From Tannockella kyphosi (lineage in GTDB: Bacteria > Bacillota_I > Bacilli_A > Erysipelotrichales > Coprobacillaceae), in assembly GCF_021054785.1 (NCBI RefSeq), contig NZ_CP088239.1, positions 660,001-692,000 on the forward strand: a DNA stretch of 32,000 bases. The letters are read 5' to 3'. Shown piece after piece: positions 17,819 through 28,282 of the stretch (within the stretch, counting starts at the first letter, position 1; the number at the start of each line of letters is the position of its first letter). Made by a program: the position numbers and the translations under genes. The notes under the pieces were generated by a model. It worked only from the letters and a program-made list of their open reading frames with translations. It did not search any database and was not told the origin of the DNA.

Positions 17819-18301
17819 ATGTCAATCCAAGAAGATATTGATCATCGAAGTATTGCACTTACCACAAGAGCTGCTAAGGTAACTGGTCATACACTCTATA
17901 AAATGATTAGAATGTATATGCAACATCGCAAAAACAAGAAAATGCACCCAAACATTCCACAAGGAAAGCAAACTGTTAAAGCTCTAGCCAAGCAAGGGCA
18001 AGGTATGACTTCACTTGATATGAATGATAATGATGTAAAGTTATTTGACCGATTGATGCGAAAATATGGTGTTGATTATGCAATTATGACAGACAAAAAG
18101 ACAAAGCCACCCACTCATACTATTTTCTTTAAAGGAAAAGATGCTGATGCTGTGACAAAGGCTTTTTCAGAATTTACATCAGAGATTACTAAAAAGCAAA
18201 GCAAAAACTCTGTTCTTGCACAACTCAAACAGTTTGTTGAATTGGTGAAGAACAATACGATCGATAGAGTTAAAAACAAAGATAAGGAGCATACACGATG
18301 A
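17819..18301 (+). CDS. pcfB: PcfB-family (DUF3801) conjugation protein
   Basis: AAGGAGG RBS. ...GKQTVKALAKQGQGMTSLDM...DVKLFDRLMRKYGVDYAIM...TIFFKGKDADAV fits the PcfB pattern. In related elements as I recall them, this gene usually lies just upstream of the coupling-protein gene. Confidence 0.7.
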   Translation: MSIQEDIDHRSIALTTRAAKVTGHTLYKMIRMYMQHRKNKKMHPNIPQGKQTVKALAKQGQGMTSLDMNDNDVKLFDRLMRKYGVDYAIMTDKKTKPPTHTIFFKGKDADAVTKAFSEFTSEITKKQSKNSVLAQLKQFVELVKNNTIDRVKNKDKEHTR

Positions 18302-18771
18302 AACGAAAATTTATAGTCAGTTTTCTGTTACTGACAATATGTCTATCTTTAGTGTCTTGCACCAAAGATAACGAGATAGACCAAACCTTAACAGAAGAAC
18401 AATCCCAAACAGAAAGTATTGAGGAAGATGATTTAGTCGTAGGAGAAACAGATGCCGACAATGAAGTTGATTATTCTTGGTTAGAAGAATTAAGAGAAAC
18501 AACTGGTTGTGAGCTGTGTGGCTCTACTGATTGTCCCTCTCTTTATGCTACTGATGAATGGGGACAAGATGACATTGATATTACCTTATGTGAAGAATAT
18601 GACATCACCAGTGATCCACTTTACTATTGCCCGATTTGTGGCAAAGAAAAAGGCGATGGCACAAATGATACTTGCGTTAGATATTTAGAAGATATGACTT
18701 GTTATCTGTGTGGTGAAGATGTTACTTGCCTAGAATGTCATACCTGCAAGGAGGTGGAACAGCTTGAATAA
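18298..18771 (+). CDS. Cys-rich lipoprotein
   Basis: The start overlaps the pcfB stop (ATGA). Lipobox LSLVS|C, an acidic linker, then four CxxC motifs (CELC, CPIC, CYLC, CLEC). Confidence 0.65.
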   Translation: MKRKFIVSFLLLTICLSLVSCTKDNEIDQTLTEEQSQTESIEEDDLVVGETDADNEVDYSWLEELRETTGCELCGSTDCPSLYATDEWGQDDIDITLCEEYDITSDPLYYCPICGKEKGDGTNDTCVRYLEDMTCYLCGEDVTCLECHTCKEVEQLE

Positions 18772-21469
18772 ATCAAAGAGATTTCGTCCACTTATCATGA
18801 GTGCTATTTGTATGCTAATGATTTTTACAACTAGCATTAACGCCTTTGCTATTTCTTGGAATGGTAGCTCAGATGGTGGTGGAGGTGGTGGATCATCAGC
18901 GACTACACCGGGTTATTCCATTACTTATACGAATTACAATAACGTGGCAGGTTATCGCTTTTCAGTTATAGATGCAAGTGGTAATACTGTTTCAAAAGTA
19001 ATTGATGTTTACCGAAGTGGTTATTCAACCTACATGAGTTCCTATCAGAAGTTTAGTACCAAGTACAATAAAGCACAACTTATAGCAAAGCAAAATAGCA
19101 GTTTTTCCATTACTTCTAATACCACTAACTGCTTTAATGAGTCTAGCTTTAGTATTTCACTACCCGATCCCGATGGTATGGCAAGTTGGGCAAAAACAGA
19201 TGCAAACTTAAATGCTATTTTACGAGAACTTGGATTTTCAAATGGTGTAGATAGTTTATCCTATGGTTACAAGGTAATTGTAGAGCCTTTACAACTTGTC
19301 CGTATAGAAACTGTTCGATGTGTTTTAACATTAACTGAAATTGCCCTTTATGGGAAACATTTGTTAGGTGCATCAAGTAATGGCGGCTCAAGTAGTAATA
19401 GTGGTACATGGGGATTTATTGCAAATTATACTAATATGCACTTTGCAAACTGGTTATACACTCCCGATGGAATGGGTGTTTGGGGTAATGCAAGTTATTT
19501 AAGTAGCAAAGCTACATTTTATACGATTATTAATTCGGGATATGGTGTAGGTGTTGCCTATGACGTGGCTACAAGGCAAGAATATACGGTTACTTACAAT
19601 GCCAATGGTGGTAGTAATGCCCCGAGTTCTCAAACCAAATACGAAGATGTTAGCTTAACACTTAGAACAGCAACTCCCACACGAACGGGTTATACCTTTA
19701 AAGGTTGGGGAACGTACGCAACAGATACTTCTGTAAATTATAGTGCAGGTGGAACATACACCTCAAACAGCAACATTACTTTATATGCTATATGGGAACG
19801 AAACTCCTACACAGTCAGTTATAATGCCAATGGTGGTAGTAATGCCCCGAGTTCTCAGACGAAGTATTATGGAATAAACCTCACCTTGAGGACAGCAATA
19901 CCTACACGAACGGGATACACATTTAGTGGTTGGGGAACGTATGCAACCGATACTTCTGTAAATTATAGTGCAGGTGGAACGTATACTTCCAATAGTGGAA
20001 TTACCCTCTATGCGATATGGACACCGAACTATTACACGCAGACCATAAACTTTTATAAGTATAATCCACTTACCGATGATTGGATCTACTACACGACTAA
20101 AACCACATCAGCAAAGTATGGGACAACATTTACTCCAACTACCACTGGCGTAACAACACCAACGGGACATTATTTTGGTGGATTTTCCGTTAGTTCGTGG
20201 ACTGTAACGGGAGCAAAAACGATAAAGGGATATTATTATCCCAATGAGTACACCGTTAGTTACAACGCAAACGGAGGTAGCAATGCTCCAAATCCTCAAA
20301 CTAAATACTATGGTTATAACTTAACTTTGAGTAGTCAAATACCAACTCGAACGGGTTATGATTTTGCAGGTTGGGGAACATACGCAACCGATACTACTGT
20401 GAATTATAGTGCAGGTGGAACATATAGCTCCAATAGTAGCACTACCCTCTATGCGATATGGACACCGAATGTAGATATTTATCCCGAATATATCGTGCCA
20501 AACTCCAGTTATAGGCAAGGAACTGATATTATTGTCAGCTATGACATTGTAAATGACGGAGTATTTAGCTTTACACCAAGCGATCCTCTTGAAGTAACTC
20601 TTACAGTAAGCTCGACCAATGATGCAGGAGTAACAACACAGATTTTAAATACTTCTGAAGATGTAATTGTCCCGAGTTATAACGAAAATCTTGTGTATTT
20701 CAAGGTAAGTGTCCCGAGTGACAGTCGTTATCTCACGTTTAAAATAAATGTTTCTTCCAGTGTAGAAGAATACGATTATGCAAATAACACTTCTACAAAA
20801 GTCGTTTCCGTTACTTCGGTGGTAGACTCACAAACAGAAGATACCACTTTTGAAAGTTCACCAACTGGATTTACTGTACCAAGCTCCACAGCTAGTACAC
20901 CTACTTTGGGTGAAACAGCAGTAAGTAGTGCAACGTGGCAAGTATGGGAATGGAGCAATAACGCATTCGTGCTTAACACTTATGGAGTTACTTATTCTCC
21001 TACAATATCTGTAACAGCTGACACAGTAGTTCAGACCGAAACAGTAAGTGGTAGCATTACTACCATGAAATCGGGATACGGAATTATGTTTGAAGCAACA
21101 ACGGGCATATCTTCTTACGGAAGTTATTTAATGCCAAGTAGTGATGCCTATACATCAGCTCAAAATGGAGCATTATTTTTACCCGAATATCAGTATTCTA
21201 GTGCAATCAATAGTTATCGCACATTAGGACTGATTAGCAATATATTGACACTTGAACAAAACAGTAATGCTCTAAATAGTAATGGATCAAGTGCATATCG
21301 AAGGGTACATTTTACACCGATTTATTATCCCGATGGAATGTATGTATTAAAATCTTACATTTATGATGTTTGGACACCGGCAGGCATGATTAGTGCCACC
21401 ACCACAACAAGCCAAATCAAGATAGATGGAAATATCTATGATGATTGGTTTTACACAACTATTCAATAA
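18764..21469 (+). CDS. Large secreted surface protein with Listeria-Bacteroides (Flg_new) repeat domains
   Basis: TTG start 9 nt after AAGGAGG. Signal peptide ...TTSINAFA|ISW, then a Gly run. Three clear YTV(T/S)YNANGGSNAP...PTRTGY(T/D)F.GWGTYATDT.VNYSAGGTY.SNS..TLYAIW domains and one degenerate domain follow. I see no LPxTG motif and no C-terminal anchor. Confidence 0.75.
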   Translation: MNKSKRFRPLIMSAICMLMIFTTSINAFAISWNGSSDGGGGGGSSATTPGYSITYTNYNNVAGYRFSVIDASGNTVSKVIDVYRSGYSTYMSSYQKFSTKYNKAQLIAKQNSSFSITSNTTNCFNESSFSISLPDPDGMASWAKTDANLNAILRELGFSNGVDSLSYGYKVIVEPLQLVRIETVRCVLTLTEIALYGKHLLGASSNGGSSSNSGTWGFIANYTNMHFANWLYTPDGMGVWGNASYLSSKATFYTIINSGYGVGVAYDVATRQEYTVTYNANGGSNAPSSQTKYEDVSLTLRTATPTRTGYTFKGWGTYATDTSVNYSAGGTYTSNSNITLYAIWERNSYTVSYNANGGSNAPSSQTKYYGINLTLRTAIPTRTGYTFSGWGTYATDTSVNYSAGGTYTSNSGITLYAIWTPNYYTQTINFYKYNPLTDDWIYYTTKTTSAKYGTTFTPTTTGVTTPTGHYFGGFSVSSWTVTGAKTIKGYYYPNEYTVSYNANGGSNAPNPQTKYYGYNLTLSSQIPTRTGYDFAGWGTYATDTTVNYSAGGTYSSNSSTTLYAIWTPNVDIYPEYIVPNSSYRQGTDIIVSYDIVNDGVFSFTPSDPLEVTLTVSSTNDAGVTTQILNTSEDVIVPSYNENLVYFKVSVPSDSRYLTFKINVSSSVEEYDYANNTSTKVVSVTSVVDSQTEDTTFESSPTGFTVPSSTASTPTLGETAVSSATWQVWEWSNNAFVLNTYGVTYSPTISVTADTVVQTETVSGSITTMKSGYGIMFEATTGISSYGSYLMPSSDAYTSAQNGALFLPEYQYSSAINSYRTLGLISNILTLEQNSNALNSNGSSAYRRVHFTPIYYPDGMYVLKSYIYDVWTPAGMISATTTTSQIKIDGNIYDDWFYTTIQ
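19583..20461 (+). repeat. Block of four ~70-aa domain repeats within the surface protein gene
   Basis: Units start at 19583, 19808, about 20030 (degenerate) and 20249. Units 1 and 2 share long identical nucleotide runs such as aatgccaatggtggtagtaatgccccgagttctca. Confidence 0.75.
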
Positions 21470-27801: not shown

Positions 27802-27808
27802 GTGGACT

Positions 27809-28282
27809 ATGAGAAAACTATTAAAAGATAAACAAGGCTCATCAAGTCTAATCTACACCATAGTCGTTTTAATCTTTCTATGTATTCTAACTCTTGGAAT
27901 TGTTACTGTCATGCAATTTAGAAGTTTGGCTTTAGAAATACAGCATACAGCAAATGCAAGCCTTGAAGAATATGTCACAGTACAAGCAATGGAAAATATG
28001 GACTCTATTAAAAATGGAAATAGCTATTTAGTGACCATAGATGAAAATGAGTTAATCGACTATCTAGCAAATGCGTTGGGTGTGGATGCTGACTTAAAAG
28101 GTGAAACAAGTACGGGGCGAAGTTTTGAAATCACGAACTTAGACCTTACCTTTGATACTGTAAATGAAATGGATGTAATGATTGAATTTGATTTAAGTAT
28201 GCCAGTAGAAGTATCGGGAGTATCTTTTCCACCACTAGAAACGACAATAACCCTTTACTCTGAACTAGCAAGTAAATTTTAA
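27809..28282 (+). CDS. Second TadE/TadF-like pseudopilin
   Basis: ATG 27809 follows GGTGGA. The N-terminus is KDKQG|SSSLIYTIVVLIFLCILTLGIV, and there is no conserved Glu. Confidence 0.45.
   Translation: MRKLLKDKQGSSSLIYTIVVLIFLCILTLGIVTVMQFRSLALEIQHTANASLEEYVTVQAMENMDSIKNGNSYLVTIDENELIDYLANALGVDADLKGETSTGRSFEITNLDLTFDTVNEMDVMIEFDLSMPVEVSGVSFPPLETTITLYSELASKF

Follow-up and report, generated by a model that had tools for sequence, protein, structure and literature searches.

Conjugation in Gram-positive bacteria is usually considered to depend on surface adhesins rather than pili. The thin type IVb pilus of the IncI plasmids R64 and TP114 and the type IV pilus of PAPI-1 have been shown by experiment to aid mating (PMC9045228, PMC12857230), and a 2025 review of type IV secretion systems (T4SSs) takes up type IV pili for IncI and PAPI-1 alone, with no mention of Tad pili. 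In the Gram-positive Listeria island LGI-1, virB/virD4 genes have cpa/tad "pilus-like" neighbors (Gilmour et al. 2010, PMC2834635; repeated in the review PMC10300472), which are known by annotation only, as a "possible pilus-like outgrowth" (PMC2834635), and papers on pXO1 also place tad genes beside transfer genes. The linear C. acnes plasmids p15.1.R1, pIMPLE-HL096PA1 and pTP-CU411 are transferable, a surface pilin has been detected, and their tad locus has been read by its authors as serving adhesion or virulence (PMC5696575, PMC9119108). Literature searches found no functional study of Tad or type IVc pili in connection with conjugation or integrative conjugative elements (ICEs), nor any of DUF4320, DUF6133 or DUF8195; the association of Tad genes with conjugation has been annotated previously and never characterized. 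Tn1549-family and related ICEs have been described as major vehicles of gene exchange in gut Firmicutes (PMC12084326). Here we describe a predicted Tad-type pilus locus, at positions 18298–28282, that interrupts the transfer genes of a Tn1549-family ICE in a 32,000-nt stretch of Tannockella kyphosi DNA (NZ_CP088239.1, positions 660,001 to 692,000), hereafter the window.

The block comprises 13 open reading frames (ORFs), all intact, full length and on the + strand, with conserved motifs, and collinear with those of relatives at 75–99% TadA identity. Together they are predicted to encode all parts of a Tad-type (type IVc-like) pilus machine, intact and without a secretin, and a dedicated secreted adhesin. 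A preliminary description of this DNA had proposed a secretin-less Tad-like locus between pcfB and the type IV coupling protein (T4CP) gene of a Gram-positive conjugative element; this proposal is borne out, and each ORF named in it was found where it had been placed, intact and on the + strand. The features of the block and its two flanking genes are listed below by window position.

17819–18301, + strand: pcfB (DUF3801, 4.8e-35; plasmid homologs annotated "PcfB family")
18298–18771, + strand: Cys-rich lipoprotein of 157 aa, with lipobox LVSC and several CxxC motifs read from the sequence
18764–21469, + strand: secreted adhesin of 901 aa, with a Sec signal peptide and three Flg_new repeats (2.1e-36)
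21472–21511, + strand: terminator-like hairpin and U-tract after the adhesin gene (−17.5 kcal/mol, z −4.7, then UUUUUU)
21647–21871, + strand: first flp-like prepilin, 74 aa, with a basic leader of ~25 aa, a Gly and a hydrophobic helix (sequence and transmembrane (TM) scan)
21983–22207, + strand: second flp-like prepilin, 74 aa, a tandem duplicate of the first by a 260-nt direct repeat in the sequence
22220–22253, + strand: strong hairpin after the second prepilin gene (flp2), with no clean U-tract (−20.2 kcal/mol, z −5.7)
22305–22862, + strand: tadV-type prepilin peptidase, 185 aa (Peptidase_A24, 1.3e-11; four TM-like segments in the TM scan)
22859–23614, + strand: cpaB/rcpC, with an N-terminal TM segment followed by SAF (1.9e-5) and RcpC (1.6e-11)
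23586–24308, + strand: short ATPase of the ParA/MinD superfamily in the tadZ/cpaE position (AAA_31 at 0.0014, below cut-off)
24298–25617, + strand: tadA/cpaF secretion ATPase (T2SSE, 7.3e-22), the sole such ATPase in the block
25614–26525, + strand: tadB-like platform protein (hhalign to the TadC-like family; AlphaFold2 model)
26535–27392, + strand: tadC-like platform protein (T2SSF, E=0.011, under the Pfam cut-off)
27394–27801, + strand: minor pilin or pseudopilin with DUF4320 (9.9e-13), leader MRKILRNNNG, then a hydrophobic helix
27809–28282, + strand: second minor pilin or pseudopilin, ~157 aa, leader MRKLLKDKQG, then a hydrophobic helix
28292–28816, + strand: 5' stump of virD4, the T4CP gene, covering residues 1–175 and ending just past Walker A (73% identity to an intact homolog)

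Caulobacter CpaF was the best PDB match to a profile of the TadA family (4e-38 over the full length), with FlaI at 1e-24 and VirB11 at 8e-22. The window protein also matched the NCBIfam model TIGR03819 ("TadA family conjugal transfer-associated ATPase") at 1.6e-32, under the cut-off of that model, and it falls short of the curated NCBIfam thresholds for the TadA, VirB11 and FlaI equivalogs; it is predicted to be a divergent member of the CpaF/TadA family. A VirB11 identity was ruled out, as the CpaF match is both better and full-length and the neighboring genes encode an A24 peptidase, RcpC and GspF-like proteins. The two proteins encoded downstream of TadA are paralogous polytopic membrane proteins (hhalign probability 91.7%). 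T2SSF was detected in 12 of 24 homologs of the TadC-like protein, with a best E-value of 2.5e-6, and the TadB-like protein has no significant Pfam or NCBIfam family. The profiles of both returned only chance matches among PDB sequences. An AlphaFold model of the TadB-like protein (pLDDT 76) matched the cytoplasmic domains of PilC, EpsF, OutF and TcpE in Foldseek, and GspF-like SpoIIIAB as well, with target TM-scores of 0.63–0.76 and probabilities up to 1.0 at weak E-values (0.24–7.6). The family relationship and the model indicate that these are two platform proteins of GspF fold, of the TadB and TadC types.

The tadV start codon is preceded by a GGAGG ribosome-binding site, and the encoded peptidase consists of an A24 domain alone, without a methyltransferase domain, in which both Asp motifs (ISD and GGADVK) are readable. 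The TadZ-like protein is without a receiver-like N-terminal domain, although its operon position fits TadZ; its family profile gave weak PDB matches to MinD, Soj and FleN (1e-6 to 1e-4), and TadZ itself was absent among the 60 best. Pfam found no Secretin domain among the ORFs of the block and its flanks, as the preliminary description had stated for RcpA. The outer-membrane secretin RcpA/CpaC belongs to diderm Tad systems only, and its lack is expected in a monoderm host.

The prepilin genes form a tandem duplication (21615–22210) with a 260-nt unit at 89% identity; the mature parts of the two proteins are identical, all amino-acid differences being confined to the leader. Their length of 74 aa, mature part of ~49 aa, long basic leader and hydrophobic helix are Flp-like traits. 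Neither has a Flp_Fap match in Pfam at E<0.01, and the G/XXXXEY processing motif of the Flp family is lacking, the presumed cleavage region being KG/MSQTTETV, with no EY. The pilins of related modules fall into Pfam DUF6133 and have the architecture of prepilins 1 and 2. Both minor pilins start with ten residues of basic leader, the last a Gly, ahead of a hydrophobic helix; these traits are kept across relatives, where the ~157-aa protein is the conserved partner of the DUF4320 protein in 64 loci. Neither minor pilin matches TadE in Pfam, one of them being DUF4320, and no significant Pfam or NCBIfam family was found for the prepilins or the ~157-aa protein. Common to the pilins, the DUF4320 protein and the ~157-aa protein is a basic leader running to a Gly and then a hydrophobic helix of ~20 residues, a pattern that recurs in dozens of relatives. 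The inventory given in the preliminary description was thus right, and profile hidden Markov models (HMMs) support it for T2SSE, Peptidase_A24 and RcpC/SAF, and weakly for T2SSF (0.011); its labels "flp" and "tadE-like" hold as analogies of architecture and not as HMM memberships. Here the labels "flp", "tadE-like" and "tadZ-like" are accordingly used for architecture and position, without membership of those Pfam families.

The lipoprotein has no significant Pfam or NCBIfam family, and a custom HMM links it to ~240-aa proteins beside the adhesin in 15 related loci. In the 901-aa adhesin no LPXTG motif was found. Over the part annotated as DUF8195, its last 330 residues show 35% identity (E 2e-63) with the adhesin of a Thermocaproicibacter element, and its N- and C-terminal ends match the DUF8193–8195 protein of the C. 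kluyveri module, the N-terminal domain weakly. Because this C-terminal region is common to elements of different backbones while the middle of the protein varies (Flg_new here, SpaA or TED domains or nothing elsewhere), the adhesin is assigned to the Tad module.

The position of the module was surveyed in 80 metagenomic loci with 70–84% identity to the intact T4CP of the closest relative, 79 of which include upstream sequence. In these relatives pcfB lies directly beside the coupling-protein gene, as the preliminary description had stated: the two genes overlap by exactly 4 nt in 79 of 79, and no Tad-family gene was found at the locus in any of the 79, so that the slot filled by 10 kb in the window is normally empty. 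The backbone of the relatives (pcfB, virD4, maff2, TrbL_2, PrgI, virB4 and CHAP) is that of the Tn1549 family in the layout of PMC12084326, and the part of it present in the window (parA, parB, DUF6017, DUF3846, pcfB and the virD4 stump) identifies the host element as a putative Tn1549-family ICE. By this comparison the position of the Tad block is unusual for such an ICE. The description of the family in PMC12084326 contains no pilus term, and the arrangement seems to be new because it appears neither there nor in the 79 relatives.

The insertion is common to a small lineage of loci (L001, L088, L089, L179 and L180). In L001, with a TadA 90% identical to that of the window, virD4 is intact and is followed by Maff2, TrbL_2, PrgI, a VirB4-like ATPase and a CHAP hydrolase; L088 and L089 have TadA proteins 99% identical to the window. 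In L179 and L180 (TadA 75% identical), a HipA gene pair lies between the last minor pilin gene and virD4 (L179, 8406–9525), and the T4CP, Maff2, TrbL_2 and PrgI are present in L179. A YhcG gene also lies between virD4 and maff2 in L179.

The module itself is not unusual. With each species represented by one genome, a TadA scan gave 367 relatives, of which the best 80 (34–72% identity) were analyzed with ORFs labeled by profiles built from the seed genes. All but one of these 80 are in records named Bacillota or Clostridia. The exception (L022, QKJH01000080.1) is filed as an alphaproteobacterial metagenome-assembled genome, though its genes are of the clostridial module type, and the filing is probably a binning error. 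The conserved order in the loci is DUF3846, pilins, A24, RcpC, TadZ-like, TadA, TadB, TadC, DUF4320, minor pilin, adhesin, TrbL (VirB6) and VirB4. Conjugation markers were found in 50 of the 56 loci with adequate flanking sequence and in 32 of the 34 with full flanks; as one of the two fully flanked exceptions has TrbL_4 and a CHAP/NlpC hydrolase, the count becomes 33 of 34. This TadA clade appears to be confined almost wholly to the conjugative elements of Clostridia and other Bacillota. A common chromosomal island unrelated to ICEs, the case that the preliminary description had named as speaking against it, is excluded by the same 33 of 34 loci. Carriers of the module include Dehalobacter, Desulfitobacterium, C. 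kluyveri and Sinanaerobacter, which we take not to be host-associated.

The module is found on at least three T4SS backbones, the first being the Tn1549 type of the window, L001 and L179. The second, with SSB, ArdC-primase, T4SS_pilin, VirD4 and DUF8208, is found in L002, L003/L004 (Thermocaproicibacter melissae) and L181, and the third is the TrbL_5 or LGI-1-like type of C. kluyveri, L. monocytogenes and Enterocloster-type contigs. In the C. difficile plasmid pCd5_2, genes for VirD4 (CD1115 family), a pLS20_p028-family protein and DUF5592 come after the module. The window TadA is closest to the SSB/ArdC-primase/T4SS_pilin type (50–55% identity), which has the same adhesin-first order; for these two reasons the window module was probably captured from an element of that type. 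Recombination appears to have placed it between pcfB and virD4 in a Tn1549-family ICE.

TrbL_5 is a very large family, with at least 8000 scored candidates, all at E<1e-10. Among members picked regardless of Tad genes (C. kluyveri DSM 555, L. monocytogenes and Enterocloster-type), the full module lies upstream in 6 of 6 informative loci, and among 14 TrbL_5-like loci from IMG/VR it is present in 5 of the 10 close ones. The idea that Tad is a core part of every TrbL_5 element is ruled out by the latter count, despite the 6 of 6 in the three look-ups; in TrbL_5 elements the module is frequent but optional. In the Tad-less TrbL_5 element L190 (891–9529), the slot upstream of DUF3852–TrbL_5 is occupied by genes for a sortase, a protein with a CAP domain and an adhesin of 1,883 aa that has 15 SpaA domains. 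Because a sortase and a SpaA adhesin stand there in place of Tad, the comparison suggests that the slot encodes the adhesion device of the element in interchangeable forms.

Among plasmids, the DUF4320 protein matches only eight in PLSDB, all clostridial: five from Clostridioides and one each from Terrisporobacter, Oscillospiraceae and Subdoligranulum. One of the eight is NZ_CP037841.1 (L087). Seven of the eight are labeled "non-mobilizable" by MOB-suite (via PLSDB). This label is at odds with the transfer-type genes of the plasmid that was inspected, pCd5_2, which encodes VirD4-like and pLS20_p028-family proteins and, by custom HMM, a VirB4-like ORF.

Other genes were observed within or beside the module in several loci. 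In L081 (Vallitaleaceae, 2375–8243), defense-type genes lie between tadV and cpaB inside the Tad module, namely those for a Schlafen/AlbA_2 protein and for a Gabija-like pair made up of AAA_15+OLD-TOPRIM and a UvrD helicase, and a radical-SAM gene separates tadC from the DUF4320 gene. In L176 (5095–6939) a group II intron reverse transcriptase precedes the adhesin gene, and an insertion sequence (DDE_Tnp_1) precedes virD4 in L004 (T. melissae, 17259–18680).

The remaining features of the host element within the window are as follows.

13435–13737, + strand: 5' fragment of spoIVA, ~101 codons (SpoIVA_ATPase, 1.8e-44, profile positions 1–99 of 237 only)
14172–17539, + strand: parA, parB, a DUF6017/HTH gene and a DpnD-PcfM+DUF3846 gene, the maintenance or leading region of the ICE (Pfam)
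28817–32000 and past the window end, + strand: nested integrative mobilizable element (IME) (Pfam and translation)

The + strand from 13.4 kb to 32 kb is a single continuous series of co-oriented genes in the ORF list, and the GC fraction climbs from ~0.28 to ~0.36 at ~14 kb in a composition scan of the window. The spoIVA match ends after ~101 codons, just before this rise, and we therefore infer that a foreign element is inserted in spoIVA, the fragment marking the predicted chromosomal insertion site and the left boundary of the conjugative element. Insertion of an ICE inside spoIVA is reminiscent of the intervening elements of sporulation genes. The order parA–parB–DUF6017/HTH–DpnD-PcfM+DUF3846 matches that of Tn1549-family relatives. 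The 3' part of spoIVA falls outside the 32-kb window, as would the ICE integrase, the MOBP7 relaxase and the T4SS genes past the nested IME.

A very strong hairpin with a 23-bp stem and a U-tract (13860–13909; −33.2 kcal/mol, z −9.3) lies within the element, ~120 nt from its left end and upstream of a small ORF rich in Cys (13874–14155). It could be a terminator shielding the ICE from spoIVA transcription, or an end structure. Further upstream, a 64-aa ORF (7940–8134) and an intact YhcG/DUF1016 nuclease gene 2 kb downstream of it (10369–11385) have a common motif, HALR(G/D)ELSWTHYRLLMRV, and the shorter ORF looks like a pseudogene fragment of a second YhcG copy.

The T4CP gene that the preliminary description placed after the block is present, but only as a 5' fragment, being split by the nested mobilizable element. 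Compared with an intact 588-aa T4CP, the match covers residues 1–175 and breaks at ~nt 28816, and the T4SS-DNA_transf match of the stump spans only profile positions 38–80 of 468. The nested element encodes a large serine recombinase with DUF4368 (28871–30670), TnpV, DUF3847 and, from 31610, the start of a MOBQ-like relaxase, the N-terminus of which was read from the translation. IMEs of the MOBQ2 type with DUF3847 and TnpV, and IMEs named for their insertion in traG, have been described for Faecalibacterium and Roseburia, together with the nesting of IMEs in Tn1549-family ICEs (PMC12084326), and by its gene content the element in the window is assigned to the MOBQ2 type. Because virD4 is split by it, the ICE copy in the window is probably immobile, with no self-transfer unless the nested IME excises. 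IMEs with serine recombinases are capable of precise excision, and the virD4 split may thus be reversible.

Within the block the genes overlap or are separated by 9 nt or less, except for gaps of 177, 111 and 97 nt flanking the pilin genes, so that the overlapping or near-abutting arrangement noted earlier holds for most of the locus and not around the pilins. The stop of pcfB and the start of the lipoprotein gene retain a 4-nt overlap, and from tadV through virD4 all genes overlap or lie within 9 nt of each other. The co-transcription of pcfB through the T4CP gene that the preliminary description had envisaged is doubtful, because of the hairpin and U-tract after the adhesin gene, the strong hairpin after flp2 and the gaps around the pilin genes; a pilin-rich transcript with partial read-through is predicted to be more likely than a single one. 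The hairpin at 22220–22253 is probably an attenuator or an mRNA stabilizer. A scan for sigma-70-like promoters was uninformative, with 55 sites against 68 in shuffled sequences.

On balance, we think it somewhat probable that the block is an accessory, exchangeable adhesion or mating-pair device, encoded by the element and aiding its T4SS. In keeping with this, the module is closely built into the operon, with the 4-nt overlap at pcfB kept and gaps of at most 9 nt between tadV and virD4. As envisaged by analogy with known systems, TadV would cleave the two Flp-like prepilins and the two minor pilins, and the TadA(CpaF)–TadB–TadC platform, acting with membrane-anchored CpaB and the ParA-like protein, would polymerize a thin pilus that crosses the cell wall. 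Binding specificity would come from the large variable adhesin, perhaps aided by the lipoprotein. In Caulobacter, CpaF drives retraction as well as extension (PMC11300603), and TadA may also retract the pilus because it is the only ATPase in the block; by analogy with CpaF, a single ATPase may power both movements and draw donor and recipient together. The device would form or stabilize mating pairs or aggregates and would be accessory rather than essential, in a role like that of the IncI thin pilus.

This mating role is drawn from gene content and comparison, and several points weigh against it. The Tn1549 backbone dispenses with the module, as its absence from all 79 close relatives indicates, and only half of the close IMG/VR TrbL_5 elements have it. 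The Tad ORFs are intact despite the broken virD4, which would also fit a transfer-independent benefit to the host, and the predicted hairpins after the adhesin gene and flp2 suggest regulation apart from pcfB and virD4. Chromosomal Tad pili of Gram-positive bacteria act in colonization (Bifidobacterium) or transformation (Micrococcus), as cited in PMC5696575. The dispensability of the module and its integrity beside a broken virD4 also count in favor of colonization or biofilm cargo, the pilus and adhesin attaching the host bacterium to surfaces, mucus or cells and the element being only their carrier; so do the predicted terminators and a possible promoter of its own, the promoter scan itself being uninformative. 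The tad loci of rhizobial or C. acnes plasmids are usually read in this way, the latter by its own authors, and Tad systems are the type IV filament systems most often transferred and most often plasmid-borne (PMC6668835). Against this reading, the module keeps a constant place in transfer operons, on the transfer strand, in three backbones and not in variable cargo regions, its hosts come from sludge, sediment and dehalogenating cultures as well as guts, and almost no clade members were found outside conjugative contexts. The carriers that are not host-associated and the fixed place in transfer operons therefore favor mating or aggregation over pure colonization cargo, which we regard as unlikely.

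It is very improbable that the Tad machine moves DNA directly, whether as an essential conduit or envelope-crossing partner of VirB4/VirD4 or as a DNA-uptake pilus. PAPI-1 does require its type IV pilus in all mating conditions (PMC12857230), the tad locus of M. luteus is needed for transformation (again as cited in PMC5696575), and the module directly abuts virD4. The elements nevertheless retain a full Gram-positive T4SS (VirB6-like, VirB3-like, VirB4 and cell-wall hydrolase), often with a VirB2-like DUF3852/TrbC or T4SS_pilin protein, close relatives of the same backbone are without the module, and Pfam searches found no ComEC- or ComEA-like gene in the block. The location of the ICE inside spoIVA and the break of virD4 after codon 175 could also indicate a decaying or silent passenger in a trapped element, with Tad genes unexpressed or being lost. 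We judge this improbable, given 13 full-length ORFs with conserved motifs, collinear with relatives at 75–99% TadA identity, and a virD4 split that may reverse, as serine-recombinase IMEs are able to excise precisely.

Extended beyond the window, the proposed mating-pair device leads to a broader and more tentative idea, which falls somewhat short of probable: that a true Tad-type pilus serves as an exchangeable mating module in many conjugative elements of Clostridia and other Bacillota, with pilus and variable adhesin selecting recipients, and that this module has been swapped among at least three unrelated T4SS backbones and can be replaced in its slot by a sortase-anchored giant adhesin. 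If a Tad pilus and its adhesin do set mating efficiency or recipient range, a pilus-based step would be added to Gram-positive conjugation, the tie of this Tad clade to conjugative elements would be explained, and a handle for predicting or blocking gene flow would be gained. Pili in Gram-positive conjugation, a long-assumed gap, become directly testable, as related modules have culturable carriers in L. monocytogenes, C. kluyveri and C. difficile plasmid-bearing strains.

Compared with the canonical Tad/Flp systems (Aggregatibacter tad and Caulobacter cpa), the window locus has the same CpaF/TadA ATPase, two single-domain GspF-like platform proteins, methylase-less A24 peptidase, CpaB/RcpC, ParA-like ATPase, small pilins and two minor pilins. 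It differs in being without a secretin (RcpA/CpaC), TadD and TadG, in pilins without the Flp_Fap signature or G/XXXXEY, in minor pilins that are DUF4320 and an unnamed family rather than TadE/TadF, and in its short TadZ-like protein. With the Tn1549-family ICEs it shares the order parA, parB, DUF6017, (DUF3846), pcfB and virD4, continued in that family and in relative L001 by maff2, virB6 (TrbL_2), virB3 (PrgI), virB4 and the CHAP hydrolase; the nesting of MOBQ2 IMEs inside ICE genes including traG/virD4 is common to both as well (PMC12084326). Where those elements have a 4-nt pcfB/virD4 overlap and no pilus module, the window has 10 kb of Tad and adhesin genes. The C. acnes plasmids are likewise Gram-positive and have a tad locus beside VirB4-, TcpC- and FtsK-like transfer genes. 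A common lineage with that locus is unsupported: the DUF4320 protein matches only clostridial plasmids in PLSDB and no C. acnes plasmid, none is named among the TadA matches listed, and the C. acnes locus appears to be a separate actinobacterial lineage.

LGI-1 is, like the element in the window, a Gram-positive mobile island with cpa/tad genes beside virB4, virB6 and virD4-like genes, an adhesin and an NlpC/P60 hydrolase. The TrbL_5 loci of L. monocytogenes and C. kluyveri encode a DUF6133 pilin, A24, RcpC, a ParA-like protein, T2SSE, two platform proteins, DUF4320, a minor pilin and a DUF8193–8195 adhesin; the L. monocytogenes locus (L173) is LGI-1-like, its identity with LGI-1 itself being unconfirmed. 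The T4SS of this LGI-1-like type has TrbL_5, DUF3852 and Amidoligase, in contrast to the PcfB, VirD4, Maff2, TrbL_2 and PrgI of the window type, its adhesin gene lies downstream of the pilus genes rather than upstream, and its TadA is only 34–40% identical to that of the window. The IncI and PAPI-1 pili are Gram-negative and type IVb, with a secretin, larger pilins and PilV shufflon adhesins, whereas the window locus is monoderm and Tad-like, with a mature pilin of ~50 aa, a separate secreted adhesin and a proposed role in mating. Like them, the window pilus genes are encoded on a conjugative element and are distinct from its T4SS, and as element-encoded type IV filament machines with adhesins, separate from the T4SS, the IncI and PAPI-1 pili are the proposed functional analogs of the Tad module.

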